Assembly: GCA_964635905.1 (NCBI GenBank)
Contig: CAZWPK010000001.1
Span: forward strand, 437,096 to 501,095
Direction: 5' to 3'
DNA length: 64,000 nucleotides
Origin: an uncultured Pseudomonadales bacterium
GTDB taxonomy: Bacteria > Patescibacteriota > Microgenomatia > UBA1400 > UBA12028
A model generated the notes under the pieces. The model was not told the origin of the DNA. It was given only the letters and a program-made list of their open reading frames with translations, and searched no databases. The position numbers and the translations under genes were made by a program. This document shows, piece by piece, positions 12,002-56,735 of this stretch; position 1 is the stretch's first letter; each line of letters starts with the position of its first letter.

Positions 12002-14023
12002 TTATTGCAGTGTACCGACTAAGGTAAGCCCCGCGGATGTGCTAAGTGCGTCGATAATGGTTTTTCGAATTTGGGTTGCATCTTCTGCTGTCAGTTGTTT
12101 GTCGCCAGCATAAGTTAGAGAGAAAGTTGCATTATGTTTGTAGATATCCACAAACTCTACATTCGTCACCAATGGGATTTGACGTATGGTATCAAGAATC
12201 ACTTGCATGGTGGCTGTGGGTGGTACGGTGAATGTTAGATCCTCCGTAATTGGAGTGAATTTGGAGGCAGCCACAACAGTCGGATAGGCTCGTGCCTTCG
12301 ACAATACCGTTCTCCAGTCCAAATCAATAATGCAAATATTCGTATAGTCTGAGTGTGGCAAGGTTAGGAAGGTTCCTATGGATAGTCCATCATCATGAAT
12401 GATCGTTTTGAAAGGACTATCGGTTTTTTGATAGCTTGGAGCGCTCAGATAGAGGTGGGATAGGACTGCAGACACCATACCTTTGGCAAATCTAGCGTTC
12501 CCTTTAAAGCTGAGCGTCAGGTGTAACTCTTCTGTTGGAAGAACAGTGTTGGAGGCAGTCGTTGCGGTGGAGGGAATGTAGACATTAGCGAATTCAAAGA
12601 CCCCAAGTTCTTTTCGAGTCGACGATTTCAAGAGTACAGAAAGGTGGGAAACCCACAGTGTTCGGCGTAAAAACACCATGTCATCGGTGAGAGGGTTTTT
12701 GATTTTTACGTGGGTTTTTTGTATGTCGGCTGTCGTTGCAACAAAGGCAGACTCCACAAAACGAGATTCTAGAGTTGCCATCTCTTCACTAATCATTGAA
12801 TAAGTGTAGAGTTCGGTGGCTCCTAGGGTTGCCAGCAATTGTTTGACCGCATGTTCGGTATCGAAACGATCATTCGTTGGAACATAGGGAATCTCACCCG
12901 GCATGAGGACCGATGGCAGATGATGGTATCCGTAGATACGGGCGACTTCTTCAATGATATCTTCGGGGATTTCTAAGTCCGGTCGAAAGCTCGGAGGTGT
13001 TACGCGATACGCATCCGCAGTGATTTCCACCTGGCACCCTAAGTTTTCCAGGATGGACTGCACCGTTGTTGCGGGTAACAAGACACCCAAATAGGCCTCA
13101 ATGCGCTTGGTGGGTGTAGACACTAAACGCGGAGCACGACTACCAGGGAAGTCGTCGTAGCGCTCACTAGACAGTGATCCACCAGCGAGGCTTGCGAAAT
13201 ACGCTACTCCTTTGTCAAACACATCAGAGGCGAGGGTGGGATCAACATTTTTTTCAGACAGCTGCGCGGCCACGGTTCGAATCGCATGGGTCATGGAGGC
13301 AAAACGAACTTTGGCAGGATCCAGAGTTTCCATCCAAAATAAGACGTTTTTGGTATCATCTTGGATTGCGGTGTTCTTTGTTCCCTTGATAGCGGGGAGA
13401 TCAATAATGTCCCCTGCTTCATTTTCAAACACCACCTCCCCGCCCACGGTGGTAAAGGTTTCACCATCAATGATTTGAAAGGTTTTTCCGGCTTGTGCTT
13501 CTTTTATCAGGATTACTCCTCCAGTCTGCATCACCTTGTCATAGTCAAAAGCATGACACGGATGGCCAAGGTCATGGGTGATGTAATTCGTGATGTCGAT
13601 GACGGCGTCATGCACATTAATGCCAACTAAGCGGAGGCGTTGTTGCATCCAGTCGGGTGCAGGGGTTTTTGAAACTCCCGCAACCACCTGACAGAGGATG
13701 CGTTTACACAACTTGGGGTCATTAACGATTCTAGGAAGTGGAAGGGTTGACGTGAACGCAGGGATAGTAGTTTGTAGCGGTTTTAGGCTTGAGGGAATAC
13801 CAGCCTGGGATAAGATGACTGCCATTTCGCGGGCTACTCCTCGAACGGACATACTATCCACGCGGTTGGTGGTGACTTCAATATCGTAAACGGGTTCATC
13901 CTCAATCGTGTGGATGCGTTCAATCGAAGGACCGGAAAGAGAGACTAGTCGCTGAATTTCTTGTGGAGTGGCAGTGGTTTCTAGATGATCAAGTAACCAA
14001 GAATGCGGAATGAGAATATTCAT
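12002..14023 (-). CDS. pheT: phenylalanine--tRNA ligase beta subunit (short form lacking the N-terminal tRNA-binding domain)
   Basis: 673 aa. B3/B4 and catalytic-like domains. Follows pheS with a 3-nt gap. Confidence 0.8.
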   Translation of the reverse strand: MNILIPHSWLLDHLETTATPQEIQRLVSLSGPSIERIHTIEDEPVYDIEVTTNRVDSMSVRGVAREMAVILSQAGIPSSLKPLQTTIPAFTSTLPLPRIVNDPKLCKRILCQVVAGVSKTPAPDWMQQRLRLVGINVHDAVIDITNYITHDLGHPCHAFDYDKVMQTGGVILIKEAQAGKTFQIIDGETFTTVGGEVVFENEAGDIIDLPAIKGTKNTAIQDDTKNVLFWMETLDPAKVRFASMTHAIRTVAAQLSEKNVDPTLASDVFDKGVAYFASLAGGSLSSERYDDFPGSRAPRLVSTPTKRIEAYLGVLLPATTVQSILENLGCQVEITADAYRVTPPSFRPDLEIPEDIIEEVARIYGYHHLPSVLMPGEIPYVPTNDRFDTEHAVKQLLATLGATELYTYSMISEEMATLESRFVESAFVATTADIQKTHVKIKNPLTDDMVFLRRTLWVSHLSVLLKSSTRKELGVFEFANVYIPSTATTASNTVLPTEELHLTLSFKGNARFAKGMVSAVLSHLYLSAPSYQKTDSPFKTIIHDDGLSIGTFLTLPHSDYTNICIIDLDWRTVLSKARAYPTVVAASKFTPITEDLTFTVPPTATMQVILDTIRQIPLVTNVEFVDIYKHNATFSLTYAGDKQLTAEDATQIRKTIIDALSTSAGLTLVGTLQ

Positions 14024-14026
14024 AAC

Positions 14027-15121
14027 CTAAAATTGTTCCAGTAATTGCAGGTCTCCGTTGTACAACATGCGAATATCATCGATATGTAAGCCCGGACGTA
14101 ACGTATACGTTCGCTCGATTCCCCAGCCGAATGCAAAGCCAGTATAGATCTCTGGATCTAGTCCTCCAGCTCGTAGGACATTGGGATGGACCATGCCTGC
14201 GCCACCCACCTCATGCCAACCCGATTTACAAAATCGACACTTTTCCCCGCTGGATAATGTGCCAGTTCCATCGCAAATCGTGCAGGAAAAATCGACTTCA
14301 AAGGAGGGTTCCGTGAACTGGAAATGAAAGGGACGAATGCGGGATTTGGCATTCGGTCCATAAAAGGAGCGCGCAAAATGATCAATCGTTCCTTTGAGGT
14401 GTTGAATGTTGATTCCCTTGTCCACCACTAACCCCTCAAACTGATGAAACATGGGGGTGTGGGTTACATCGGACTGTCGACGGTAGCAGCGGGCGATATT
14501 AATCATGCGAATAGGAGGATTTTTGAGTCGCTCCATTTCCCGAACTTGTCCGTTGGAGGTGTGCGGGGTGAGAACGACCTTGCCTCCCGCTATATCCGGA
14601 TGACGACAGCGTGGATTGATGGGATCATAGGGAATATCTTTTGTGGTTTCGGGAAGATCGATAAAGAATGTTTCCCATTCATCGCGGGCTGGATGATTGG
14701 GAGCCATGTTGAGAGACTCAAAGGCATACCAGTCCCAGTCAATTTCAGGGTACCGTACCCGCGTAAAGCCGATCTTTTCAAAAATTTGTGTGACTTCATG
14801 AATCGCTTGGGAAACGGGATGCACATGCCCAAGATTCAATTCTATCCCAGGTAGAGTGGGATCCTGCAATGTAGACGTAGCTGTAGACTCTGTGGTTTCC
14901 CCGAGTTCTTGGTTGAGCCATGTTTTTAAATCGTTGAGTGCAATCCCAGCTTCCTTGCGATCTTTGGGAGGTAATTCTTTGAGTACGTTGGTGAGTTCCT
15001 TAAACTTCCCATTCGCTCCCAGATAGGTGGAACGTTTTTGCACAGAATCCGTGGTATCGTTTGCAAAATTTCCCTTTAGCGTGGATATGGATTGGAAAAG
15101 TGTGTCAAGTGAAGTACTCAT
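14027..15121 (-). CDS. pheS: phenylalanine--tRNA ligase alpha subunit
   Basis: Class II motifs (FQFTEPSFEVD, GFAFGWGIERT). GGGAG RBS 8 nt upstream. Contains a CxxC...CxxC insertion (FSCTICDGTGTLSSGEKCRFC). Confidence 0.9.
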   Translation of the reverse strand: MSTSLDTLFQSISTLKGNFANDTTDSVQKRSTYLGANGKFKELTNVLKELPPKDRKEAGIALNDLKTWLNQELGETTESTATSTLQDPTLPGIELNLGHVHPVSQAIHEVTQIFEKIGFTRVRYPEIDWDWYAFESLNMAPNHPARDEWETFFIDLPETTKDIPYDPINPRCRHPDIAGGKVVLTPHTSNGQVREMERLKNPPIRMINIARCYRRQSDVTHTPMFHQFEGLVVDKGINIQHLKGTIDHFARSFYGPNAKSRIRPFHFQFTEPSFEVDFSCTICDGTGTLSSGEKCRFCKSGWHEVGGAGMVHPNVLRAGGLDPEIYTGFAFGWGIERTYTLRPGLHIDDIRMLYNGDLQLLEQF

Positions 15122-17188: not shown

Positions 17189-18943
17189 TTAGACTGCCAA
17201 GTCTCGATTGGCATTCTTTTCGATAAGTTGCTGTATGAATTTCTCCACTTCCCAGACCCCGCGATTGACATTTCCTCGAGCACGGACAGAAACTGTTTCT
17301 GCCTGTGCCTCTTTGTTCCCGACGACCAGCATGTACGGTATTTTTTGGTGTTCTGCCTTTCGAATACGATTTTGCATACTTTCAGCTTCATTCCAGTTTT
17401 CGACACGAATTCCAGCTGCTTGCAATTTTTCAAGTAATCCTTGGGCATATGGCTGCTGATCTTGAGAGATTGGGATGATCACGGCTTGAATGGGAGACAA
17501 CCACAGTGGGTAAGCACCGGCAAAATGCTCAATCATGAAGGCAAGGAAGCGCTCATGGACTGATAATGGAGCACGATGGATGACAAAGACTTCAGTAGAC
17601 TGCGCTCCTGATTCATCGACATACTCGAGTCCAAAACGCTTTTTTGCAGCAAAATCGAGTTGAATGGTCGACATTGTCTCTTCCCTCCCAATGGCAGATT
17701 TAAACTGCACATCCACTTTTGGACCGTAAAAAGCTGCTTCATCATCGGCTTCCACAAATTTCACATCAAGCTCTTGGAGGACTTCGCGCAGCACATTTTG
17801 ACTTAATTCCCAGTTCTCGGGCTCATCGATGTACTTTTCTGTGTTTGCGCTATCCCATTTGGATAAGCGGAACCAATAGTCCTTGAGACCAAAGATCTTA
17901 AAGTACTCCATGGTGAGCCTGAGCACGTTAGCGAATTCTTCTTTGATTTGGTCCTTTCGGGCATAAATGTGGGCATCGTTCATACTCATGCCGCGGACAC
18001 GCAAGAGCCCTGCCAGGGCCCCAGACAACTCATTGCGGTAGCAGGTGCCATATTCTGCAATGCGCATGGGAAGCTCTTTGTAGCTTCGAGGCGTATGCTG
18101 GAAGATCCGATGATGATGCGGACAGTTCATAGCTTTGAGATAATAGGTTCCATCATCCATGACCATGGGTGGATACATACTATCTTTGTAGTATGGCAAG
18201 TGACCGGACGTTAGAAAGAGCTCTTCTTTGGCAATATGGGGGGTCGCCACGCGCACATACCCGGCCTTTGCTTCTTGCTCCTTGGCGAGTTTTTCCACTT
18301 GATCGCGTAGGATTGTGCCGTTGGGAAGCCACATAATGAGACCCTTGCCCACCATCTCATCGATGAAGAAGAGCTCTTGGTCTTTTCCGATTTTTCGGTG
18401 ATCGCGCTTCTTGGCTTCTTCTAGCATTGTTAGATGGGCGTCTAATTCTTTTTGCGACGAGAAACAGGTTCCATAGATACGTGTAAGCATGGCGTTCTTC
18501 TCACTACCGCGCCAATAGGCACCAGCAACGGAAAGCAGCTTGAAATAGCGGAGCTCTTCATCAGGATGTTCTACATGTCCTCCTCGACACAAGTCAGAAT
18601 AGTCTCCCGACGTGTACATGGATAAGACCTCACCTTTAGTGGCAAATTCTTCGATCAATTCCTGTTTATACGGGTTATCCTGGTATTCGTTCTTGGCTTC
18701 ATCTACCGAGACTTCCTGACGGGAGAAATCCTTCCAGGTTTTGGCGATGGCATGCATCCGTTCTTCAATAGCTGGAAAATCACTTTCCGAGATCGGTTTC
18801 TCAAATTCAAAGTCAAAATAGAATCCTGAATCGATGGCTGGACCAATCGTACGCTTGGTTGTTGGCCAGAGATCCATGACTGCTGCTGCAAGTAAATGTG
18901 CGCAGGAGTGGCGTAGATATTCGAGATATAGTTCTTTTTTCAT
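17189..18943 (-). CDS. thrS: threonine--tRNA ligase (compact form lacking the N-terminal TGS domain)
   Basis: HSCAHLLA second-domain motif. Class II catalytic core and anticodon-binding domain. AAAGGA RBS. Confidence 0.9.
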   Translation of the reverse strand: MKKELYLEYLRHSCAHLLAAAVMDLWPTTKRTIGPAIDSGFYFDFEFEKPISESDFPAIEERMHAIAKTWKDFSRQEVSVDEAKNEYQDNPYKQELIEEFATKGEVLSMYTSGDYSDLCRGGHVEHPDEELRYFKLLSVAGAYWRGSEKNAMLTRIYGTCFSSQKELDAHLTMLEEAKKRDHRKIGKDQELFFIDEMVGKGLIMWLPNGTILRDQVEKLAKEQEAKAGYVRVATPHIAKEELFLTSGHLPYYKDSMYPPMVMDDGTYYLKAMNCPHHHRIFQHTPRSYKELPMRIAEYGTCYRNELSGALAGLLRVRGMSMNDAHIYARKDQIKEEFANVLRLTMEYFKIFGLKDYWFRLSKWDSANTEKYIDEPENWELSQNVLREVLQELDVKFVEADDEAAFYGPKVDVQFKSAIGREETMSTIQLDFAAKKRFGLEYVDESGAQSTEVFVIHRAPLSVHERFLAFMIEHFAGAYPLWLSPIQAVIIPISQDQQPYAQGLLEKLQAAGIRVENWNEAESMQNRIRKAEHQKIPYMLVVGNKEAQAETVSVRARGNVNRGVWEVEKFIQQLIEKNANRDLAV

Positions 18944-22708: not shown

Positions 22709-23458
22709 TTACCCTACATTGCGAGCCACTTGGTGTTCCTGGCTCATTAAATAGGCGGTACCACCCTTTTGACTGTAGACTTGGTTCCAGAACGCACCCT
22801 GCTTTTTGCTTCGGGAATTAAAGTTCTCAATCCAGGTATTAGCCTCGTGGACACGTTTTCGCAGTAACACAACAAAGTTTAGGAGCTGCTGGAAGAAATG
22901 GACATGGTACGTGCCAGGATCGCTGACATCTTGATGAATGGCGGTCTTGACACTGCCATCTAAGGTTTTGATTTCTTTGGCCAGGGCTTTAAGTTGCTCT
23001 TGGAGCTGCTTGATGACTTCTTTGTCCTTTTGCTCCCGCATGTTAAAGACTTCCGTCATTTGGAATTCTTTGTGACGAACAGCGCGCTGTTTCTCAAGAT
23101 CCATCTCCTGTCGCTGCTTGTCAATTTCAGCTTGTTGCTCGAGTGCTTTTGCAAAGGGATTTTCTGACTGAGAGTCATTGTTCTCGGAAGGCTGCGAGGT
23201 TCCCGTGCCAAAGATAGAACTCATGGCATCATTGACGATTTGACCCGGAATGGCGGATGCCTGTTTCACGGTGGTTCCACCAATTTCCTGGATTGCCCGT
23301 GCGAACGGGTTTCCAGTAAATGAAGGAGCTGGTCGTGATGATTTTCCAGGCGTGTTCATATTCACAAAACCCACCATACGAGAACTTCCGTCGTAGGTGG
23401 ACTTAAGACTACACCAGATTATACGCACCTGTCTTGAGTAAATCAAGCGCGAAACCAT
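22709..23458 (-). CDS. hypothetical coiled-coil protein (249 aa; the true start is probably internal)
   Basis: ORF with a central Gln/Glu/Lys-rich coiled-coil segment. Confidence 0.35.
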   Translation of the reverse strand: MVSRLIYSRQVRIIWCSLKSTYDGSSRMVGFVNMNTPGKSSRPAPSFTGNPFARAIQEIGGTTVKQASAIPGQIVNDAMSSIFGTGTSQPSENNDSQSENPFAKALEQQAEIDKQRQEMDLEKQRAVRHKEFQMTEVFNMREQKDKEVIKQLQEQLKALAKEIKTLDGSVKTAIHQDVSDPGTYHVHFFQQLLNFVVLLRKRVHEANTWIENFNSRSKKQGAFWNQVYSQKGGTAYLMSQEHQVARNVG

Positions 23459-26624: not shown

Positions 26625-28418
26625 CTACATCGCAGTGGGGATTTGGATCCCTAGAATTGCACACCCCTTCTCTATCACGCCTGCAGTAGCTTGCGTTAAG
26701 GTGATTCGTTTACTTTCTTCCTCACCGGAGCCAAGAATCTTATAGGTATTATAGAATGAATTATACAACTGTGCCAAACTATATAAATAGGTAGTCAGAA
26801 TGTGGGGTGCATGCTCGTAAGCAGCCTGTTCTACCACGGTCACAAACCGCGTCAGCTGGTAGGCTAAGTGCCGTTCGAGGGGATTCATGGTCCAGTTAGC
26901 CTTGTCCCCCTCTGGAAGCTCGCCAGCTTTACTCAAGACGCTCTTGGCACGTACAACGGTGTACTGCATATAGGGTCCAGAGTTGCCATGCATCGAGAGC
27001 AACTCGTCCCAATCAAAGACGACTTCCATCTGTGGCGAACGCTTCAAGTCGTTCCACTTGATGGCGCCGGTGGCAATTTGAGTGGTGGTCTGCTTACTTT
27101 GTGAAATGGATGTTGCCGTCTGTGAATCACCTACTATAGGCCTTGTTCGGGCTGCGTCGTCCGAGTGGAATTCGGATTCTACAGCCAATTTTTTCGCGCG
27201 TGTGAGCGCCTCTGTAAGAACATCCTCCAACCAAATCACATTGCCTGATCGGGTCGACATCTTCTGATCTTTAAGGCGAAAGAGACCGTGTTTCACGTGA
27301 ATACGCTGCCCTTTGGGGTACCAACCCAAGAGTTCTTCGATACGAAAGAGCTGTGAAAAGTAGAGAGACTGTTCGGCCCCGACTTCGTTGATGATCCGGA
27401 TTTCCTTCCCATAGTGGTTCAGTCGAAAGAAATCGGTGGCAAGATCCCGGGTCGAATAGAGAGTGGAGCCATCTTTCTTTAAAATCATTAAGGGTGGGTA
27501 TTCGTCATTGGGAAAGAAGAAGAGTTTGGCTCCCTGTTCCCCAACTTGGAGAAACCCAGATTTTTCTAGGATTGCCACAACGTCGGCCATCTTATCTTCA
27601 AAGAAGGACTCTCCATACCCTTTTCCTTCATTTTCTGTAAAGGTGATGCCTAATTGACCATAAATCTGATGGAATTCCTTTAAGGAGAGATCGATGCAGC
27701 GTTGCCAGATTTCTCGTGCAGTTGCATCCCCATGTTCCAACTTGGTAAACCACTCTCGGGCTTGATCTTCCAGTGTGGGGTCTATCTTGGCTTCTGCATG
27801 AAACTTCACATACAGCTCGACTAATTGTTTTACTGGTCGCTCTTCTGCTTCAATGGTATCCAGATTCCCCCATTTGGTAATGGCAACAATCAGCTTGCCA
27901 AATTGGGTTCCCCAGTCTCCGACATGGTTGTCCTTGTAGACCGTCCAACCTAATGTTGCATAGAGGTTGGCAACGGCATTGCCAATAATCGTGGAACGAA
28001 GGTGTCCAACGGTAAAGGGCTTAGCAATATTGGGAGATGAAAACTCTACGACCACCTTTTTTTCTTCAAAAAGTGGCGGAAAACTGATCTCTTTGGAAAG
28101 AGTGTGCACGTTTTCTTGAATGAGTGCATCACGTAGGACGAAATTGATAAATCCCGGTCCGGCTACAGAGACGGATTGAATTTGAGAGGGCACATTTGCC
28201 TGCATCTTGGAAACGATCTCGAGAGCAAAGGCATGGGGAGACGAGAAGGTTGCGGCTGGCAAACTTGGGAATACCTGCATGGCCAGATTACAACTGATAT
28301 CTCCATGCGTAGGATCGCTGGGAACCGCAAACCGAATCTGCGAATCAAAGGGAATGTTTAGTGCCTCTAGAGCTTCGATTAGCGCGGTCGTAAGAGTCTG
28401 TTCAATCTGTTTCATAAT
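26625..28418 (-). CDS. argS: arginine--tRNA ligase
   Basis: Class I ArgRS. The N-terminal MKQIEQTL...AVPSDPTHGDISCN is preceded by an AGAGGAAC RBS, so the true start is the internal Met of the listed ORF. KMST-like region MSTRSG. Confidence 0.9.
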   Translation of the reverse strand: MMKQIEQTLTTALIEALEALNIPFDSQIRFAVPSDPTHGDISCNLAMQVFPSLPAATFSSPHAFALEIVSKMQANVPSQIQSVSVAGPGFINFVLRDALIQENVHTLSKEISFPPLFEEKKVVVEFSSPNIAKPFTVGHLRSTIIGNAVANLYATLGWTVYKDNHVGDWGTQFGKLIVAITKWGNLDTIEAEERPVKQLVELYVKFHAEAKIDPTLEDQAREWFTKLEHGDATAREIWQRCIDLSLKEFHQIYGQLGITFTENEGKGYGESFFEDKMADVVAILEKSGFLQVGEQGAKLFFFPNDEYPPLMILKKDGSTLYSTRDLATDFFRLNHYGKEIRIINEVGAEQSLYFSQLFRIEELLGWYPKGQRIHVKHGLFRLKDQKMSTRSGNVIWLEDVLTEALTRAKKLAVESEFHSDDAARTRPIVGDSQTATSISQSKQTTTQIATGAIKWNDLKRSPQMEVVFDWDELLSMHGNSGPYMQYTVVRAKSVLSKAGELPEGDKANWTMNPLERHLAYQLTRFVTVVEQAAYEHAPHILTTYLYSLAQLYNSFYNTYKILGSGEEESKRITLTQATAGVIEKGCAILGIQIPTAM

Positions 28419-28439
28419 GGTTCCTCTTTCTTCTATTGT

Positions 28440-28680
28440 GACATAAAAAAACCCTCGAATAATCAGGATCTGATCACTCAAGGGGCACATTGTAGGTGCG
28501 GTACCACCCTTTTTTATACTTTTAATGAAGCTATATTGGGCTCACCCACCTGCATTTCCTCAGGATCCGTAGGCGATTTTCCTTCAAGAGGCGCGACTTC
28601 TTGTGGGACGGAACTGTAAGTATAGCACGACAACCTACCTACTGTCGCTCCCTTGAGCAATTGATTGAAAAGCGTCATAC
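28440..28680 (-). promoter_or_regulatory. T-box riboswitch-like leader of argS (T-box motif at 28495-28510; terminator at 28444-28487). The 5' boundary is uncertain.
   Basis: On the minus strand, AAGGGTGGTACCGCACC matches the conserved T-box sequence AGGGUGGNACCGCG. It is followed immediately by a 15-bp hairpin and UUUUUUU, about 30 nt before the argS start. Confidence 0.55.
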
Positions 28681-28684
28681 TAGA

Positions 28685-29806
28685 ATGATGTTCCCCACAG
28701 AACTTGAAGCGTCCGTACCGCCACCAACAGCGTCAGGTTTAGCAGATCCCTACCGATGGAAACGCTGGGTCATCCTGATTTTGGCTGTCATAGCTATGGT
28801 CATGATGGTTCTGTACTTTGTACGACCAGTTCTGTTTCCGGCAGCCAGACAAACTGCGGAGCTTGAGCGCTTGCTTTCCGCGTCTCCTACTCCGTTACCC
28901 GCGACCGGCACATTTGTGGATTCTTTGTACGGGACGATTCTTTTTAGATCTACTGGCGATGTCAAAGAACTGGAGCTTCCATCAAGACTCGTTAATGTAG
29001 TTCTGGCGACGACCGATTCCAAATCGGCCCAAGCCGTAGTCGTACCTAGCTCGATTCCTACTTGGTCAACTGATGGAGAATTACTCTTTCTCCATACGGG
29101 AACACGGACAATTTCCGGGGTTACATTTGAAACGGGTGCGTATGTAGCCACCTATCTGCTACGCAATGATCAAGTTGATGGGGCAACACCACTACTTTCT
29201 CCATCGCCGGGTAACGAGGTACTGGCGGTCAGTTCCCCGCAATCGGCGCATGGAAGTGATTATATCGAGTTTTTTGATATTGCCACGGGAAATGCATTAG
29301 GGTTTTATGACAACTGCGCGACGAGGGGTATTTGGGTGGAGGGGATGGGATATGTGGCCAAATGTAAGTTGGGAGAACGATATTCCGTAGTGCTCATCCA
29401 ATTTTCGTCCACGTCATCGCAAATGATTCCACTCACGACGCAGAACACCTCTGTCGATTATCTCTTATTGGAACCGTATGACGAGACTCAAGTCGTGGTG
29501 CAACGTAACCAAGGATTGGTCAAAACCATCGGTAAGCTCTCGTTTACCGGGAAATTTACTCCATTAACAACAGCAGAAAGACAGGCTCTATCGGATCCAG
29601 AGGTATTGCTAGATCCTGTCGATGCCCTCACAAAGCGGGTTGCAGCACAGACGAAGCTACCTAATATTTCTAGCGTTCAGGTCTCCAGTGATAACTTATG
29701 GGTAGCTTTCTTATCCAATCAGACCATCTATGTCTCGAAATTAGACTTTACAGAACAACCATTCGCTCTGGGTGAAGCGGAGTGGATGTTGCTGCGACCG
29801 CGATAA
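28685..29806 (+). CDS. membrane-anchored hypothetical protein with a beta-rich extracytoplasmic domain
   Basis: Probable start at ATGATG (28685). TM helix WVILILAVIAMVMMVLYFV. Beta-strand-rich remainder. Confidence 0.45.
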   Translation: MMFPTELEASVPPPTASGLADPYRWKRWVILILAVIAMVMMVLYFVRPVLFPAARQTAELERLLSASPTPLPATGTFVDSLYGTILFRSTGDVKELELPSRLVNVVLATTDSKSAQAVVVPSSIPTWSTDGELLFLHTGTRTISGVTFETGAYVATYLLRNDQVDGATPLLSPSPGNEVLAVSSPQSAHGSDYIEFFDIATGNALGFYDNCATRGIWVEGMGYVAKCKLGERYSVVLIQFSSTSSQMIPLTTQNTSVDYLLLEPYDETQVVVQRNQGLVKTIGKLSFTGKFTPLTTAERQALSDPEVLLDPVDALTKRVAAQTKLPNISSVQVSSDNLWVAFLSNQTIYVSKLDFTEQPFALGEAEWMLLRPR

Positions 29807-29835: not shown

Positions 29836-31032
29836 CTAGAGCGGAAGTTGACCTGGCTCTTCCGATTCTAGCAGTGATAGACCGGTTAATTCTGGTACAG
29901 CGGAACTTCCCGCCAGTCCTTGAATGTTTCCATAGATATTCCCGAGGGAAAGCATTAGTCGCTGCGCTTGGCCTTCTCGCATTTTCCAAATCTTCTCCAT
30001 TGCGGCGCGTTCTTTGCCAATCTGGGCATGAGCTTCAGAATACAGTTCTACGAGGGCTTCCATTTGCTGGCGGAAAGCATTGGAGGTGACATAGCCATAG
30101 ATCAGATCCGCCTTCTCACCTTTGTTTTGGGCCATTGCCTTCTCTCTGCCTACTTCCAGCAACTGCTTTCGTAAGGAAATTGCCAACGGCATAAAGAGGC
30201 TGAAGTTGCAGACCCAGACACCATCATGCAGTGTCAGCCCACACCAGTTGCTCTCGGTGTAAGCAGTCGTCACAATGACTGGGATATTGGCATGCTCGGC
30301 TCGAAGGTCTGATTTTAATTTACTCACCCAGCCTTCGGACCAGGATTTCGTTTGTTTGGATTCCCAGAGAATAATTCCGCAGATCGTTCCTTTAGACGAT
30401 CGTACGATTTGCCGGATGTCCGCACCGGTGACTCCCTTACCGACAGGTTCGATGATATCGTCACGGAATGTTTCTGTGAGCAATCGTTCCATTTCAAGCT
30501 CTTGTACCTCACCTTGCGTTTGTTGCGATCCTTGATTGGCTTTTCGCTGGGCATCTTCCAACGCTTTACGAAGATCCCCGATCATTTTGTCTTTTTGCAG
30601 ATCTTTGAGTCGTTGTTGCTCAATGAGTTGATACTCTGTCTTTTCACGAATAGACTTTCGTTCTTCTTCCAGTTTCCGTTCCATATCAAGCGTCATACTA
30701 CGCGATGCCTCTTCGAGAGCCAGTTCACGCTTGCGAAGTTCAAGTTCTTTCTCCTCCGCAGATTTTCGCTTTTTTTGCTCCTCATCCAAGCGTTCTTGAA
30801 GAAAGAATAACTCTCGCTTTGAGTCTTCTTCGAGTCGCGAACGCAACCGACGTTCGGTGGTTTCACGTTCTTCACGGAGTTTCTGTTCGAATTCTGTTTG
30901 CATTTTCTCTTGTGCAGCCACCGTTTCCTTTTTCCATTCTTGCTGCAGCGTGGATTTCATTTGTGAGGCAAAGGCATCGTCCAAGGAAATTGGGGCATGA
31001 CACGAGGGACAGGAAATTTGTGTTGATGACAT
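29836..31032 (-). CDS. coiled-coil protein with an N-terminal CxxC motif and a C-terminal PD-(D/E)xK-like domain (DUF2130-like architecture)
   Basis: N-terminus MSSTQISCPSCHAPISLDDAF. ~180 aa of Glu/Lys/Arg-rich coiled coil. C-terminal GADIRQIV...ILWESK fits a D...ExK motif. Confidence 0.55.
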   Translation of the reverse strand: MSSTQISCPSCHAPISLDDAFASQMKSTLQQEWKKETVAAQEKMQTEFEQKLREERETTERRLRSRLEEDSKRELFFLQERLDEEQKKRKSAEEKELELRKRELALEEASRSMTLDMERKLEEERKSIREKTEYQLIEQQRLKDLQKDKMIGDLRKALEDAQRKANQGSQQTQGEVQELEMERLLTETFRDDIIEPVGKGVTGADIRQIVRSSKGTICGIILWESKQTKSWSEGWVSKLKSDLRAEHANIPVIVTTAYTESNWCGLTLHDGVWVCNFSLFMPLAISLRKQLLEVGREKAMAQNKGEKADLIYGYVTSNAFRQQMEALVELYSEAHAQIGKERAAMEKIWKMREGQAQRLMLSLGNIYGNIQGLAGSSAVPELTGLSLLESEEPGQLPL

Positions 31033-39817: not shown

Positions 39818-41080
39818 TTACAGCGAAGAAATTTTTTCTTTTCCAAGAATTGGACGTAAAACTTGTGGAACGGTGATCGATCCATCTTCTTGTTGGTAAT
39901 TTTCAATCACTGCTGCAAGCAAGCGTGGTGTTGCGGCAACGGTATTATTTAAGGTGTACACATATTTGAGTTCACCCGTTGCTGTTTTATACCGCATGTT
40001 GAGTCGTCGTGCTTGAAAATCGTTAAAGTAACTTGCGGAATGTGTTTCACGATAGGTGTTCTCACCAGGAAACCAGGTTTCGATATCATACTTTTTCCGT
40101 TGACCGGCTCCCATATCACCCGTGCACATGAGAAGTACGTGATACGACAAACCTAATCCTTGCAATAATTCTTCGGAGTATGCCACCATCTGCTCATGCA
40201 TCACCTTTGTTTGTTCTTCATCCGCAACGGTTAACACGACTTGTTCTACTTTGCTAAATTGATGGACTCTGAAAAAACCCTTCGTATCTTTGCCATATGA
40301 TCCCACTTCACGACGAAAGCATGGTGAAATTCCTACAAGTTTGATTGGAAGATCTTTTTCGGTAAGCACTTCATTTTGATGATAGGCAGTCAACGATACT
40401 TCTGCAGTGCCAATCAGCCCTTGATCGTCTTGCGTCGTGTAATGATCTTCCATACCCCAAGGAAAATATCCAGTGCCCCAGAGTGCTTCCTTATTGACCA
40501 TCCAGGGAACGGTCATAGGAGTGAATCCTTTTGCAATCATTAATTGCAAGGCATACTGATGAAGTGCCATTTCAAGCAAGACAAGATCACCTTTAAGCAT
40601 GTAGGCGCGTCGCCCACCAATGGCAACTGCTTTTTCACTCTCAAACAGATTCAAGTTGGTTGCGAGCGCATAGTGTGGCTTTGGCTTGAATGCAAACGAT
40701 GGTTTTTCTCCCACCGTACGCACGACCACATTTTCTGTTTCATCTTTTCCAATCGGAGTATCAGTGGATGCGGGATTTGGAACATAGAGTAATAAGGAAT
40801 TAAATTCTGTTTCGACTGCTTTTAGTTCTGGCTCCACGGCTGCTAGTTGTGATTTAAATTCCTTTCCCGTTACAATTTCTTCCTCTGTTGGCTTTCTTCC
40901 CTTAATGGATGCAACATGTGTATTGGCTTGCTTTCGAATTCCCTCTACTGTTGCAATCAAGCCTCGTCGTTTGGTATCTAATGCTAACACCTGATCCACA
41001 ATTGCTGGATCCATTTGCTTTTCTGCGATTGCTTGTTTTAGTGTGTCGGCATTCTGCTGAATGTATTTGATATCGACCAT
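39818..41080 (-). CDS. serS: serine--tRNA ligase
   Basis: N-terminal coiled-coil arm plus class II core. 420 aa. Confidence 0.9.
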   Translation of the reverse strand: MVDIKYIQQNADTLKQAIAEKQMDPAIVDQVLALDTKRRGLIATVEGIRKQANTHVASIKGRKPTEEEIVTGKEFKSQLAAVEPELKAVETEFNSLLLYVPNPASTDTPIGKDETENVVVRTVGEKPSFAFKPKPHYALATNLNLFESEKAVAIGGRRAYMLKGDLVLLEMALHQYALQLMIAKGFTPMTVPWMVNKEALWGTGYFPWGMEDHYTTQDDQGLIGTAEVSLTAYHQNEVLTEKDLPIKLVGISPCFRREVGSYGKDTKGFFRVHQFSKVEQVVLTVADEEQTKVMHEQMVAYSEELLQGLGLSYHVLLMCTGDMGAGQRKKYDIETWFPGENTYRETHSASYFNDFQARRLNMRYKTATGELKYVYTLNNTVAATPRLLAAVIENYQQEDGSITVPQVLRPILGKEKISSL

Positions 41081-41339: not shown

Positions 41340-41480
41340 AGACTGTTCTACTTTAGGTTGTGGGTCAAAAAAAACCACGTCAATGACATCCGATTAGGAC
41401 GCAATTTGCGTGGTACCACCTAAAATTATACTTATTCCAGCTATAGTGGGCATACCCAGGTAGTATTTCTCTACCAGCTT
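41340..41480 (-). promoter_or_regulatory. probable T-box-like leader (motif at 41409-41423; terminator with U8 at 41366-41414) upstream of the serS operon
   Basis: On the minus strand, TTAGGTGGTACCACG is followed by a GC-clamped hairpin and UUUUUUUU. Confidence 0.4.
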
Positions 41481-41553
41481 AAAAAGCGAGTGCTAGTCGC
41501 ATGAGCTTTCAAACTAGTACTATTGTACTGCGGAAATCTTTGGATGCAAACAA

Positions 41554-42256: not shown

Positions 42257-44383
42257 CTAGAGGCCGATTTCCTGAGCATGCGCTTGCATCGCTGGAAGAA
42301 CAACTGAAATTAAGGTGTTCAAATCAATGTTCAGATGTGTTAGACCTTCCGTAATCTCCTCTCGAGTTGCCCCTTTTGCAAACGATTTCTCTTTAAATTT
42401 CTTAGCGACCCGTTCTGGGGTAACCGTGGCCAGTTTCTTCTCTGGCATGACTAAAGCACAGGCAACAATGATTCCGGTTAGGTGATCACAAGTATATAAA
42501 CACCATTCCATTAAGGACTCTGGATGTCGTTGACCTTCTAGGTGTTCATAGTTATGGGTGCGAATACTATCTGCCCAAGCGGGCTGAATTCCTAACTTTT
42601 CTAGCTCTTGAGACAAGACAAGTGTGTGTTGATCTGGAGTATCTTCAGTCTTCTCCCAGTCTGCATCATGAAGTAACCCAACCAGTTCCCAACTTTGCTG
42701 CGTTTCACTTACTTCTTGTGGTCGATTGGAAGAGAAATAGCTCCAGAGTCCCGACATTGCAGCTTCCACTGCAAACATATGAGATTTCAGATTTTGGTTG
42801 TCAATGAGTTGGTCTAGCAGCCCAACAGCTTGCTCACGAGTAAGTGTAAGAGCTGTCAAAGCACCCGGCTTTGTTGCGCTCTTCGCTTTGGGTGCATGGT
42901 GATTGAGCATCAACGCAGAAATCTTTTGCTGTTCTTCTGTGGGACGTAACGTAGGAAATGCGATGACTTCTTTAATGGACCAAGTGTTGGTCAAAAACAT
43001 CACCAGACGATCGATTCCAATTCCAATTCCACCTAGTGGAGGTAGTCCATGTTCCATGGCTGCGATGAAGTCCTCATCCAACGGTTGGGCTTCGGCATCT
43101 CCTTCGCGCATATTCTTTTGCTCATTTTCGAATCGGGCACGCTGATCGAGCGCATCGGTGATCTCACTCCAACCATCTGCCATTTCTTTAGTACCCACAT
43201 ACAGCTCGAAACGTTCTACAAATCCATCCTTACTTCGGTGCGCTTTGGCAAGGGGACTGACTTCTTTAGGATAATCAATGATCCAGGTTGGGTTTAACAA
43301 CTGCTTGGTTGTGAGGTGATCAAAAAGAGCAAAGATTGCTTTACCGCGGGTGAAACTACCGGTCAATTCAATGGTATGCGTTGCCAAGACTGCTTCCAGT
43401 TGCTCATCGGAAAGCTCGTTCACATCAATCTCATTATACTTTTTTAGTGCATCCGTCATGGTGATTCTTGGCCAGTTACCAGACAAATCAATTTGGGTTT
43501 GCCCGACATCGAGGGTAAGCGAGTTATAGAGCTTCTGAGCTAAGTGCTTAAACATTCCTTCGGCAACGTCCATCATGACGGTGTAGTCTGCGTAGGCGTG
43601 ATACCACTCAATCATCGTAAACTCTGGTTGATGAGTCTGATCAATGCCTTCATTTCTAAAGTTACGCGCAATTTCAAAGACTCTCTCGTAGCCACCGACA
43701 ATCAGACGCTTTAGATACAGCTCTGGAGCAATCCGCAAAAAGAAGTCACTATCCAACGCATTCATGTGTGTAGAGAATGGCTTGGCATTTGTTCCCCCAT
43801 ACAGAGGTTGAAGCACCGGGGTTTCCACTTCCACAAAGTTATAGACGTCTTGAAGATAGCGTCGAATTTCCTTTTCGATGAGCCAACGTGCATCCAGCAC
43901 TTTCTTGACCTGAGGATCAATGACCATGTCTAGATAACGGTTGCGAAAACGAACTTCTTTGTCTTCAATACCTTGGAATGATGCAGGCAGAGAGCGCAGT
44001 GCTTTGGAGAGCAGGGCAAGCTCACCGGCCTCGATCGTTATCTCCCCTGTTTTGGTTTGAATGACTTTCCCGGAAACACCCAAATAATCGGATGCATCGA
44101 TCAAGGTAACCAATTGCTTATAGGCAACAATTCCTACTGTCTCTTCTTTGACCATGACTTGAATGGTCCCAGATGGATCGGACAAATTGAGGAAGGTTAC
44201 CTTTCCGTGCTCGCGCTTGGACAGAATGCGTCCGGCCGTGGTTACCTCTTCACCTAGTGATTCTCGTGCAGTAGACACACCATGGGTTTTGGCAAAGCTA
44301 TACGGATGGACTACCACACCTTGGGCTTCTAGTTCTTTGCGCTTGGCAAGCTTGGCTTGAATTGTTTCATCGAGACGGGACAT
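42257..44383 (-). CDS. lysS: lysine--tRNA ligase (class II) fused to a ~200-aa C-terminal HD-domain (YqeK-like phosphohydrolase) extension
   Basis: LysRS core runs to ...IAFPTLRP at about residue 497 (E. coli LysS ends there). The extension carries H (KSHMFAVE), HD (LLHDADW), H (IRTHNYEH) and D (CDHLTG), matching the HD superfamily motif order. Confidence 0.85.
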   Translation of the reverse strand: MSRLDETIQAKLAKRKELEAQGVVVHPYSFAKTHGVSTARESLGEEVTTAGRILSKREHGKVTFLNLSDPSGTIQVMVKEETVGIVAYKQLVTLIDASDYLGVSGKVIQTKTGEITIEAGELALLSKALRSLPASFQGIEDKEVRFRNRYLDMVIDPQVKKVLDARWLIEKEIRRYLQDVYNFVEVETPVLQPLYGGTNAKPFSTHMNALDSDFFLRIAPELYLKRLIVGGYERVFEIARNFRNEGIDQTHQPEFTMIEWYHAYADYTVMMDVAEGMFKHLAQKLYNSLTLDVGQTQIDLSGNWPRITMTDALKKYNEIDVNELSDEQLEAVLATHTIELTGSFTRGKAIFALFDHLTTKQLLNPTWIIDYPKEVSPLAKAHRSKDGFVERFELYVGTKEMADGWSEITDALDQRARFENEQKNMREGDAEAQPLDEDFIAAMEHGLPPLGGIGIGIDRLVMFLTNTWSIKEVIAFPTLRPTEEQQKISALMLNHHAPKAKSATKPGALTALTLTREQAVGLLDQLIDNQNLKSHMFAVEAAMSGLWSYFSSNRPQEVSETQQSWELVGLLHDADWEKTEDTPDQHTLVLSQELEKLGIQPAWADSIRTHNYEHLEGQRHPESLMEWCLYTCDHLTGIIVACALVMPEKKLATVTPERVAKKFKEKSFAKGATREEITEGLTHLNIDLNTLISVVLPAMQAHAQEIGL

Positions 44384-55022: not shown

Positions 55023-55094
55023 GGGCCCGTAGCTCAGTGGTAGAGCAGGAGCCTTTTAAGCTCTGTGTCGTGAGTTCGATCCTCACCGGGCTCA
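55023..55094 (+). tRNA. tRNA-Lys (anticodon TTT)
   Basis: GGGCCCGTAGCTCAGTGGTAGAGCAGGAGCCTTTTAAGCTCTGTGTCGTGAGTTCGATCCTCACCGGGCTCA forms a cloverleaf with anticodon loop CTTTTAA. No CCA encoded. Confidence 0.85.
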
Positions 55095-55132
55095 CAGACA
55101 TACTATGTATAGTGTGAGAGAATTTCTAGGTT

Positions 55133-55205
55133 GGCCCCATCGTCTAGAGGCCTAGGACACCTGGTTTTCATCCAGGCAACCCGAGTTCGAATCTCGGTGG
55201 GGTCA
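55133..55205 (+). tRNA. tRNA-Glu (anticodon TTC)
   Basis: GGCCCCATCGTCTAGAGGCCTAGGACACCTGGTTTTCATCCAGGCAACCCGAGTTCGAATCTCGGTGGGGTCA with anticodon loop TTTTCAT. Canonical T-loop TTCGAAT. Confidence 0.85.
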
Positions 55206-55382
55206 CAAATATCGTAAGGTTCAGCGCGACCCGTTCGCCTGCGCAAAAAAGCCCGATAAGGCTTGCTAATTTTTGACCGAATTGTTCGAAATCGAGTTTT
55301 AGATCCTGTAATAGGTGAATTTACCCCAATGGGACACTCCCTTTTAAAACCACGAGAAGAACACCTACCCCTGTAGATGTCG

Positions 55383-56735
55383 CTATTTCTGAATAACTAT
55401 CGTTTTATTTGTCAGAATAAACTTCGTTTTGATGAAAGTGAGTGCTTCTTGTCTCTCTTCGGCCGTACCAATCTGAAGGATGTGAAGTAGATAGTTTTTG
55501 GTCATCTCGTTCTTGTCAGCAGAGGTTTTGGGGATTCTTTCAAATTCACCCAAATGGCCATCAATATATTCCTGATGTAAAACTTGTGACTTTAGTCGGT
55601 GATATCTCTCGATATCTTCTTGGATTTTTCGAGATACTCCGGCGTTGTTAAATTTGATTTTGTCAATGTTGGCGATTAGTTGTTTAACCAGATCTGTTTC
55701 GGTAATGTATGGTTCATCGCATTCATAATTTAATGATCTACCACAGTGATAGTAAGTGTGTTTGGTATATCCACCATGTTTTAGTTTCCTAATTTTTTCT
55801 TCGGCTGTGACACCTCCTCCACACCCACCACAACGGAAGATGCTTTTGAATGGGAATATTTTGTTTTTGTAGCCTTTGGGAACTGTTTGTAAAATTGACT
55901 GGACTTTATCGAAGAGATCCTTGGTAATGAGTGGGGTATGTTTCCCCTGATACCAAGTACCACTTCCGACTGGGAATTCAAACTCTCCAAAGTAGAAGGG
56001 GTTATTGAGCGTGGAATACACCTTACTTAACGGCATTGGTTTGTCGTTTCTAGTTTTGAAGCCGATTCGATCTAGGCAGTGTTTTATGGCTCTACCGCTA
56101 TGACCTTGATTTGCCACTCTTTCAAACATTTGAGTGACAAATGAAGCTCGATCGGGGTCTAGGATGATTAGTTCATCCTTATGACCATCACCCGCTTGAT
56201 TTAAATATCCTACAGGAGCGATGCTTGGCCTCCATCCCATTGAGCATTTCGTCCGTAAACCTCGCTGGACATTAAGTCCTTTGTTATCGTTCTCTAGCTT
56301 TGCCTGCGAGCAAAGAATCATGAGTAGGAACTTCTCGTTTGGGCTATTTGTAAAACTTTGAGAGTAAGTTTGTATCTTTATCAACTTACCTTGATCCATG
56401 AGATCAACTACTGATCCTAAGTCACCGGCATTGCGACTCAAACGATCGGGAGCCCAAGTTAAGATTCCATTAAATTTCTTTTGACGTATTTCTTGAAGAA
56501 GTTGAGTAAATACTGGCCGAGACCCAGACATTTTTGCTGAATGACTTTCCTTTTTAACTTCTTTTATCTTGAGATTGTCACGCTTCGCCAATGTAAGCAT
56601 TTCGTCAATCTGTGAATCAATCGACATTGCTTGCCGTTCATCAGATTCGGATGACTTACGGGCATAGAGACAATATTCTATTTTTGGTGGTTCTATCGGC
56701 TGATTTTGATTGTATGTTCCCATTTCAGGGTACAA
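55383..56735 (-). CDS. large serine recombinase / serine integrase
   Basis: N-terminal resolvase catalytic region LYARKSSESDERQAMSIDSQ. Recombinase domain and zinc ribbon (CGGCGG...YYHCGR). Coiled-coil C-terminus. 450 aa. Confidence 0.85.
   Translation of the reverse strand: MYPEMGTYNQNQPIEPPKIEYCLYARKSSESDERQAMSIDSQIDEMLTLAKRDNLKIKEVKKESHSAKMSGSRPVFTQLLQEIRQKKFNGILTWAPDRLSRNAGDLGSVVDLMDQGKLIKIQTYSQSFTNSPNEKFLLMILCSQAKLENDNKGLNVQRGLRTKCSMGWRPSIAPVGYLNQAGDGHKDELIILDPDRASFVTQMFERVANQGHSGRAIKHCLDRIGFKTRNDKPMPLSKVYSTLNNPFYFGEFEFPVGSGTWYQGKHTPLITKDLFDKVQSILQTVPKGYKNKIFPFKSIFRCGGCGGGVTAEEKIRKLKHGGYTKHTYYHCGRSLNYECDEPYITETDLVKQLIANIDKIKFNNAGVSRKIQEDIERYHRLKSQVLHQEYIDGHLGEFERIPKTSADKNEMTKNYLLHILQIGTAEERQEALTFIKTKFILTNKTIVIQK

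Follow-up and report, generated by a model that had tools for sequence, protein, structure and literature searches.

T-box riboswitches are divided into four classes, of which Class III, found upstream of ileS in Actinobacteria, combines a short Stem I lacking the elbow platform with a dependence on Stem II and displays its specifier in an apical loop of 5-6 nt (PMC10482949). Apical-loop specifiers with Stem II dependence are a known working design (PMC7583486, PMC10482949), and a conserved purine follows the specifiers of T-boxes (PMC7583486). In Actinobacteria, a short Stem I mostly accompanies control at the level of translation (PMC7583486, PMC10482949), and Classes III and IV "mostly regulate translation initiation" (PMC10482949). 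In Patescibacteria, regulation was described in a 2024 perspective as "virtually unknown" (PMC11665869). Here, we analyze a 64-kb stretch of DNA (the window) and a leader on its minus strand upstream of argS, which is very probably a T-box riboswitch that senses tRNA through a minimal decoding module and regulates argS by attenuating transcription. This reading stands on directly observed sequence and structure elements, on their covariation, on two mutually exclusive folds and their energies, on codons that fit the regulated genes, and on the phylogenetic spread of the leader.

The T-box motif and two competing folds

The sequence AAGGGTGGTACCGCACC is located at 28511-28495 (-), upstream of argS, and directly adjoins a hairpin followed by seven uridines (U7); the minus strand of the window reads ...AAAAAAGGGTGGTACCGCACCTACAATGTGCCCCTTGAGTGATCAGATCCTGATTATTCGAGGGTTTTTTTATG.... 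The T-box 14-mer AGGGTGGTACCGCG is matched at 28510-28497 (-) with 1 mismatch. Matches with at most one mismatch occurred twice in the window, as compared to 0.00 expected from 100 shuffles. An earlier interpretation made from the letters of the stretch (the sequence-only reading) had reported both a near-exact match to the T-box consensus upstream of argS and a 15-bp hairpin with U7 adjoining it. Both were confirmed, with the hairpin stem at 28484-28452 and the T7 at 28451-28445.

The antiterminator, or discriminator, occupies 28481-28510 (-) and has the form that a T-box requires: the helices A1 (AGGG/CCCU) and A2 (GCAC/GUGC) surround a 7-nt UGGNACC bulge, here UGGUACC at 28506-28500, and the loop is CUACAAU. 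The Rfam model RF00230 aligned this part with a posterior of ~1.0. The intrinsic terminator at 28445-28484 (-) is supported by its fold energy and z-score, as its 15 pairs (6 G-C, 3 G-U) around a loop of 3 yield -21.4 kcal/mol and z = -6.45. The CCCU of helix A1, which is the 3' strand of the antiterminator, forms the start of the 5' arm of the terminator, and the two folds are mutually exclusive. We found a terminator overlapping the antiterminator in 11/11 leaders. The hairpin is followed by U7 in the argS leader, by U8 in the serS leader described below and by U5-U7 in the relatives, with the exception of L118, in which the run is interrupted (UUUAUGUAUUUU).

The argS antiterminator stretch reaches a minimum free energy (MFE) of only ~-8 kcal/mol, and it does so in another shape than the antiterminator. 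The terminators are much stabler than the antiterminators with which they compete for the shared strand (-21.4 vs ~-8 kcal/mol for argS and -17.8 vs -7.0 kcal/mol for serS), which makes termination the default state. The textbook antiterminator sharing a strand with the terminator supports what the sequence-only reading had proposed, a T-box leader with antiterminator/terminator layout that controls argS.

The gene behind the leader was identified as argS (TIGR00456, 411 bits). Its start is likely ATG 28415 behind the Shine-Dalgarno (SD) sequence AAGAGGA (28428-28422), instead of the longest-open reading frame (ORF) start at 28490; the SD together with the coding region, which runs to the stop at 26625, spans 26625-28428 (-). 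Because the SD lies 16 nt past the U-run, outside the terminator hairpin and every helix of both conformers, the output of the leader is transcriptional and not translational.

The second near-exact copy of the 14-mer, AGGGTGGTACCGCC at 22754-22767 (-), with at most one mismatch, sits inside the C-terminal DUF5660 domain of the ORF 22709-23458 (peptide ...QKGGTAY...). Its location in coding sequence and its lack of a complementary CCCU, of a terminator and of any match to RF00230 or to the covariance model R1 introduced below led us to reject it as a riboswitch. This copy is an unexplained coincidence or possibly the result of a codon-level constraint. Since it is coding and lacks the other parts of a switch, the motif alone is insufficient as evidence.

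Specifier hairpin, downstream elements and promoters

The ultrashort Stem I of the leader is a specifier hairpin at 28585-28603 (-), CAAGA-[AGUCGCGCC]-UCUUG, which is supported by covariation and forms in the MFE fold of the argS leader. Its apical loop (28598-28590) carries the Arg codon CGC at 28595-28593, with U before and G after it. Of the Stem I with an Arg specifier that the sequence-only reading had anticipated, the codon was thus found, but it is displayed in an apical loop instead of a canonical Stem I with a specifier internal loop.

The argS loci used for comparison were gathered blind to the leader, by ArgS protein look-ups and a genome scan. Each of the seven ArgS-retrieved loci with a T-box core, as well as the window, has GUCGCG in the hairpin loop. 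The distribution is patchy, with the leader present in ~7/25 ArgS-anchored loci of the Candidate Phyla Radiation (CPR). A pattern scan of metagenomes with GTCGCGA-N60-90-AAGGGTGGTACCG returned 27 loci, among which only L105 and L112 are in the class. L093 (metG), L097 (pheS), L106 (proS) and L094 were set aside as ordinary long-Stem-I T-boxes with GTCGCGA outside the hairpin loop, and the rest had no hairpin at GTCGCGA. In L112, the leader precedes an argS whose product is 28% identical to the ArgS of the window. In L105 (Ga0163200_1018884, minus strand ~1780-1), it precedes an N-acetyltransferase-like ORF (weak match) and an ArgE/DapE-family deacylase, not argS, so that control by this class may extend to arginine metabolism.

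The specifier hairpin reads CAAGA[AGUCGCGNN]UCUUG in the window and L002-L004, GGAGA[AGUCGCGAC]UCUCC in L118, GUGGGAA[GUCGCGA]UUCUCAC in L086, AAGGA[GUCGCGA]UCCUU in L087, GAUUAG[UGUCGCGA]CUAAUC in L007, CCCAA[GUCGCGA]UUGGG in L112 and GAUCGGA[GUCGCGA]UCCGAUU in L105. The GUCGCG loop is invariant within these 7 different stems of 10 Arg leaders, while the stem itself, 4-7 bp long, is 100% paired with 6/7 pairs covarying. A specifier that matches its gene and is followed by a purine was found throughout, as CGC-G before argS in 9 loci and before the ArgE/DapE operon in one, and as AGC-A before serS. An alternative specifier, AGG-A in UUGAAGGA, is invariant in the window clade and was rejected because it is not conserved in L087, L112, L118, L105 and L007. 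The other triplets of GUCGCGA were discarded as well, GUC, UCG and GCG because they do not code for Arg and CGA because it is absent from the loop of the window itself.

Downstream of the specifier lies a Stem II-like hairpin with an RRAAAU loop at 28549-28564 (-), CCUG(A)-GGAAAU-(G)CAGG. It comprises 4-6 bp, and 6/6 pairs covary across the leaders, with compensatory changes even inside the window clade (UCUG/CAGA in L002 and U-A in L004). The loop reads ...AAAU in 10/10 leaders having this hairpin, in the variants GGAAAU, CAAAAU, ACAAAU and AGAAAU. No AGUA/GAA S-turn was seen in Stem II, and L007 may lack either the Stem II hairpin or IIA. The element that follows at 28528-28548 (-) consists of Stem IIA (UGGG-UGAG-CCCA, 28548-28537), an F-box-like CCCAAUA, which across the class takes the form CCC(A/G)NNA, and the IIB partner AGCUU (28532-28528). 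It is supported by covariation and by the high posterior that RF00230 gives to IIA/B. Stem IIA is 100% paired with 3/4 pairs covarying, and in three close relatives the base of the loop that precedes AGC and the one following GCU are G.U, U-A and C-G, which amounts to one covarying pair. The pattern suggests that IIA and IIB likely form a pseudoknot.

Two further helices are optional. P1 is an outer helix in which the 5' strand UUCCGU (28608-28613, -) pairs with the 3' strand ACGGAU (28565-28570, -); 95.8% of its cells are paired in the window clade. It covaries in L087 (AACCGU/ACGGUU) and is absent in L118, L112, L105 and L007, and as it lies very near the putative start site, its existence is uncertain. 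An extension of P1 by GGG/CCU was rejected, being broken in L002 and L004. The small hairpin P1b, AGG-AAAAUCG-CCU at 28571-28583 (-), was recognized by comparison; it is better formed in L003/L004 (AGGAG/CUCCU), L118 (CUCCC/GGAGG) and L086 (CUAC/GUAG) and absent in L112, L105 and L007.

Covariation was assessed in an alignment of 11 leaders from ~7 lineages, built by hand on structure, whose register remained unchanged by an aligner. In this alignment, 98.3% of cells are paired, as compared to 71.1% in shuffles, none of which reached it (0/500), and 37-54% in slid registers. Furthermore, 21/28 pairs change on both sides, as compared to 10.5 in shuffles. Helices A1 and A2 are 100% paired across the 11 leaders, with 2/4 and 4/7 covarying pairs, respectively. 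The covariance model R1, trained on the window clade only, recovered at full length L118 (82.7 bits), L112 (45.9), L086 (35.9), L087 (33.4), L105 (30.4) and L007 (17.9). In canonical T-boxes, the matches of R1 were nearly confined to the antiterminator, and no match in 479 kb of unrelated DNA was better than E = 0.32.

The relatives L085, L115, L116 and L117 have no leader at all. L085 and L087, which are related and of Microgenomates type, have common flanks (tagtatgccgtc...tctacaagcgggaatttga), between which L087 carries a complete ~230-nt leader and L085 none. This difference is a clean presence/absence polymorphism of the riboswitch.

The argS promoter predicted by the promoter scan is GCGACA-18-TGcTATACT at 28648-28619 (-). 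Its -35-like hexamer GCGACA (28643-28648, -) is invariant in four close relatives and is followed by a variable spacer of constant length, and its extended -10 TGcTATACT is at 28619-28627 (-); transcription would start at ~28614-28611. In three relatives (73-79% ArgS identity), synteny is shared and the leader is 89% identical. In 10/10 other leaders, a TGnTAnAnT or TACAAT box lies 11-33 nt before the specifier hairpin, and given these conserved -10 boxes, ~4-26 nt of RNA can precede that hairpin. With the -10 boxes so near the first hairpin, there is no space for a long Stem I. Upstream of ~28615, invariant hexamers with variable spacers of constant length mark back-to-back promoters, not a helix.

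The divergent promoter, at 28653-28690 (+), has TTGAGC at 28653-58, a 17-nt spacer and CATACT at 28676-81, followed by the ATG at 28685, and shows the same pattern of invariant hexamers and variable spacer. This promoter and start codon (CAT...TAGTATG layout) are kept in L085, L116 and L117, which lack the leader; they indicate that the divergent gene likely starts at ATG 28685, not at the longest-ORF TTG 28601. Because the gene starts at 28685, the leader does not overlap it. The overlap of the 5' part of the leader with the divergent membrane-protein gene (28601/28685), which the sequence-only reading had suggested, was therefore not borne out, the argS promoter being at 28648-28619. The divergent gene encodes 373 aa with no family match. 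Apparently just 3 nt separate its -10 box CATACT from the ATG, so that its mRNA may carry little or no leader. Gene callers chose the TTG at 28601 (401 aa), and from this longer start the gene would cross the argS promoter and leader.

A second leader upstream of serS and the genomic setting

R1 also matched at 41391-41512 (-), a site that does not figure in the sequence-only reading, with 42.2 bits and E = 7e-9; RF00230 gives 30.6 bits and E = 4.6e-5 there. This leader, at 41366-41550 (-), has the promoter TTTGCA-17-TACAAT at 41550-41522 and precedes a 70-aa ORF (41306-41094), which is followed by serS (41080-39818; TIGR00414, 426 bits). Its specifier hairpin GCGA-[CUAGCAC]-UCGC (41500-41486, -) carries the Ser codon AGC at 41494-41492. 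Stem II (GGUAG-AGAAAUA-CUACC, 41475-41459, -) and IIA (UGGG-UAUG-CCCA, 41458-41447, -) are followed by the antiterminator UAGG-UGGUACC-ACGC...GCGU-CCUA (41422-41395, -), whose canonical form is the MFE fold at -7.0 kcal/mol. The terminator with U8 (41414-41374, -) reaches -17.8 kcal/mol and z = -4.45, and the first start codon comes only ~60 nt beyond it.

When the two loops are compared (C-U-AGC-A-C for serS and G-U-CGC-G-A for argS), the triplet that matches the synthetase occurs only at positions 3-5, with U before and a purine after. This register was chosen because no other yields Ser in the serS loop as well. Scans of viral collections for comparative serS leaders returned nothing relevant.

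The named lineages closest to the window by ArgS are Woesebacteria (58%), "Patescibacteria group", Levybacteria, Pacebacteria and Roizmanbacteria; those of the SerS in the window are Woesebacteria (78%), followed by Pacebacteria, Collierbacteria and Microgenomates. Judged by ArgS and SerS alike, the host, an ultra-small bacterium, is a member of the CPR/Patescibacteria (Microgenomates-like). The sequence-only reading had treated the T-box as a taxonomic clue to Firmicutes, Actinobacteria, Chloroflexi, Deinococcus-Thermus and a few others. That clue misleads, as the two proteins place the host outside the phyla listed.

The window holds five aminoacyl-tRNA synthetase loci within its 64 kb: pheS/T (12002-15121), thrS (17189-18943), argS (26625-28415), serS (39818-41080) and lysS (42257-44383). 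A T-box core was looked for upstream of pheS/T, thrS and lysS of the window and none was found, which makes T-box control selective among its synthetases. The lysS is unusually long, with 708 aa and ~225 additional C-terminal residues past the LysS match. Around argS, the gene order DUF2130 protein, membrane protein of no assigned family, argS and short pyruvate kinase is kept across Woesebacteria-like genomes (29836-31032 (-) in the window, and relatives); the pyruvate kinase of this block has 346 aa and no C-terminal domain. Elsewhere in the window, a large serine recombinase (CcrB/XisF-like, 450 aa; 55383-56735, -) adjoins genes for tRNA-Lys and tRNA-Glu (55023-55206), and the boundary of an integrated element could lie here.

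Proposed mechanism, alternatives and relation to known T-box classes

By analogy with described T-boxes, the argS leader may operate as follows. Transcription would begin at the promoter inside the intergenic region, and the nascent RNA would expose first the short hairpin showing U-CGC-G, then the Stem II hairpin with its A-rich RRAAAU loop, and then the IIA/B pseudoknot. Stem I and Stem II could clamp the anticodon loop of tRNA-Arg, as in the solved ileS Class III T-boxes, with CGC pairing with the anticodon (ICG or GCG). Following established T-box logic, the 3' NCCA of an uncharged tRNA would pair with UGGU and steady the weak antiterminator, allowing read-through into argS, while with the tRNA charged or absent, the stronger terminator would form and transcription would stop at U7. 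The UGGU bulge predicts A73 (or G73 by wobble) on the cognate tRNA. In the sister leader, AGC in the equivalent loop position would place serS under the same kind of control.

The comparison with RF00230 that the sequence-only reading had called for gave a divided answer. The Rfam gathering scan of the whole window returned only three tRNAs and no T-box, and both leaders score far under the gathering score of 93 bits (27.4 bits for argS and 30.6 for serS). These two results weigh against the T-box reading. A permissive local scan, by comparison, matched 28690-28478 (-) over the full model length with E = 3.6e-4; the discriminator half was aligned with posterior ~1 and the Stem I half only weakly, around a 43-nt insertion. 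The full-length matches to the argS and serS leaders count in favor of a T-box. For calibration, 8 Bacillota argS leaders scored 98-126 bits with RF00230, whereas leaders of the present class score 24-42 bits or are undetected. Annotation and T-box databases built on RF00230 will miss the class because its scores are about a third of the gathering threshold. TBDB would miss these leaders too, because its short-Stem-I model was applied only to Actinobacteria and to Rfam-detected sequences.

The RF00230 alignment could also be taken to mean that the leader is a canonical Class I T-box with a long Stem I, whose 5' half reaches ~28690 and overlaps the divergent gene. It pairs UAGU../..CCUA, UUCAA/UUGAA and GCGAC/GUCGC around the insertion, and AGGGAG in the aligned stretch resembles an AG bay. 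However, on L003, L004 and the serS leader the same model leaves out Stem I and starts only past the -10 box, the implied codons AAU/AUC are not Arg, and the extension GGG/CCU is the one broken in L002 and L004. The proposed 5' strand has the promoter signature of invariant hexamers and constant-length spacers, its invariant blocks are explained by the divergent promoter kept in leaderless relatives, and distant members have nothing in common upstream of their -10 boxes. We consider a long Stem I the least probable of the alternatives. A translational T-box of Class III type, in which the 3' hairpin mainly sequesters the ribosome-binding site as in actinobacterial ileS, would agree with the short-Stem-I T-boxes described so far, which mostly regulate translation (PMC10482949, PMC7583486). 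It is rendered highly improbable by the intrinsic-terminator signature of a hairpin followed by a U-run in both leaders and in the relatives, interrupted only in L118, by the position of the argS SD outside all helices, and by the distance to the first start codon in the serS leader.

It is also very unlikely that the leader is a decayed relic, in which the motif and terminator persist as a constitutive or otherwise controlled attenuator after decoding was lost. The low Rfam score, the missing elbow-binding Stem I platform, the patchy occurrence among CPR argS genes and the lack of any leader in close relatives (L085, L115, L116 and L117) would fit such decay. Yet the codon loop is invariant in covarying stems across ArgS lineages down to 28% identity, and the Stem II loop, the IIA/B element and the UGGUACC bulge are all conserved. 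Moreover, where it is dispensable, the leader is cleanly deleted rather than decaying (L085 vs L087), and the serS copy has a Ser codon at the equivalent position.

The interpretation as a functional, terminating T-box has further points to answer, in addition to the low RF00230 scores. To capture tRNA quickly, transcriptional T-boxes generally rely on a distal Stem I that binds the elbow (PMC7583486, PMC10482949), and this leader has none. Stem II has only 4-6 bp, an RRAAAU hexaloop and no recognizable S-turn, a feature that Class III needs in Stem II, along with the IIA/B pseudoknot, to bind tRNA; the analogy with ileS is therefore incomplete. The alignment was fitted to the structure by hand, which inflates the pairing percentage, and its four window-clade rows are close relatives with little variation among them. 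The serS leader is a single sequence without comparative support, and the UGGU is identical in the Arg and Ser leaders. No tRNA-Arg or tRNA-Ser(GCU) gene was found in the window or in the retrieved CPR loci, and the anticodon and discriminator matches are predictions. Finally, we infer where transcription starts, that tRNA binds, what the Stem II loop does and that read-through is the regulatory outcome.

Beyond this locus, it is an evenly balanced proposition that the leaders represent an unrecognized, CPR-wide class of terminating T-boxes, whose entire decoding domain would consist of a 7-nt apical specifier loop and an A-rich hexaloop hairpin. A genome would use them on several of its synthetase genes (here on argS and serS at least), and they would lie under every standard detection threshold. 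If so, T-box control that is co-transcriptional (kinetic) would not depend on contact with the tRNA elbow, and feedback from tRNA charging would be a native regulatory circuit in CPR. Two synthetase genes with T-boxes occur in this one 64-kb CPR window, and a conserved natural combination of short Stem I and terminator offers a direct test case for the kinetic tRNA-capture argument. A dedicated covariance model would recover the class, and its ~90-nt decoding domain, among the smallest tRNA-specific sensors, could serve engineering. Full-text literature searches (Patescibacteria/CPR/Microgenomates; Saccharibacteria) found no report of a T-box or native riboswitch, although an earlier mention is possible in primary papers outside their coverage (Sherwood 2015, Vitreschak 2008).

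Among the described systems, Class III is represented here by the ileS leaders of Nocardia farcinica and Mycobacterium tuberculosis (Sherwood 2015), and the comparison rests on the reviews PMC7583486 and PMC10482949. The resemblance comprises a short Stem I without the distal double T-loop platform (here 4-7 bp with the codon at loop positions 3-5), an apical-loop specifier with a conserved purine, a Stem II-like element with a likely IIA/B pseudoknot directly downstream, and a standard discriminator with a UGGN bulge. The usual mode and context of Class III, SD sequestration in actinobacterial ileS, were not found in the argS and serS leaders. They end instead in an intrinsic terminator with a U-run, and the class precedes argS and serS (the ArgE/DapE operon in L105) in CPR/Patescibacteria. 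The loop is also larger, with 7-9 nt (G-U-codon-R-A) as compared to 5-6 nt, and Stem III is usually absent. A short decoding hairpin combined with a transcription terminator is described as unusual by the reviews (PMC7583486, PMC10482949).

With the Class I argS leaders of Bacillus, Paenibacillus and Clostridium (L033-L065), the leader shares the regulated gene, the CGC specifier (GAA-G-CGC-A in those leaders), the T-box sequence with A1, bulge and A2, the competing terminator with a U-run, and a IIA/B-like element with an F-box-like sequence. In contrast to Class I, its core measures ~170 nt and has no long Stem I, K-turn, specifier internal loop with S-turn, AG bay or distal loop. RF00230 deletes or misaligns Stem I, and no conservation extends beyond the -10 boxes in the upstream direction. 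Class II glyQS leaders also have a reduced architecture and still act by transcription termination; however, they drop Stem II and retain the elbow platform on a long Stem I, whereas the argS leader does the reverse.

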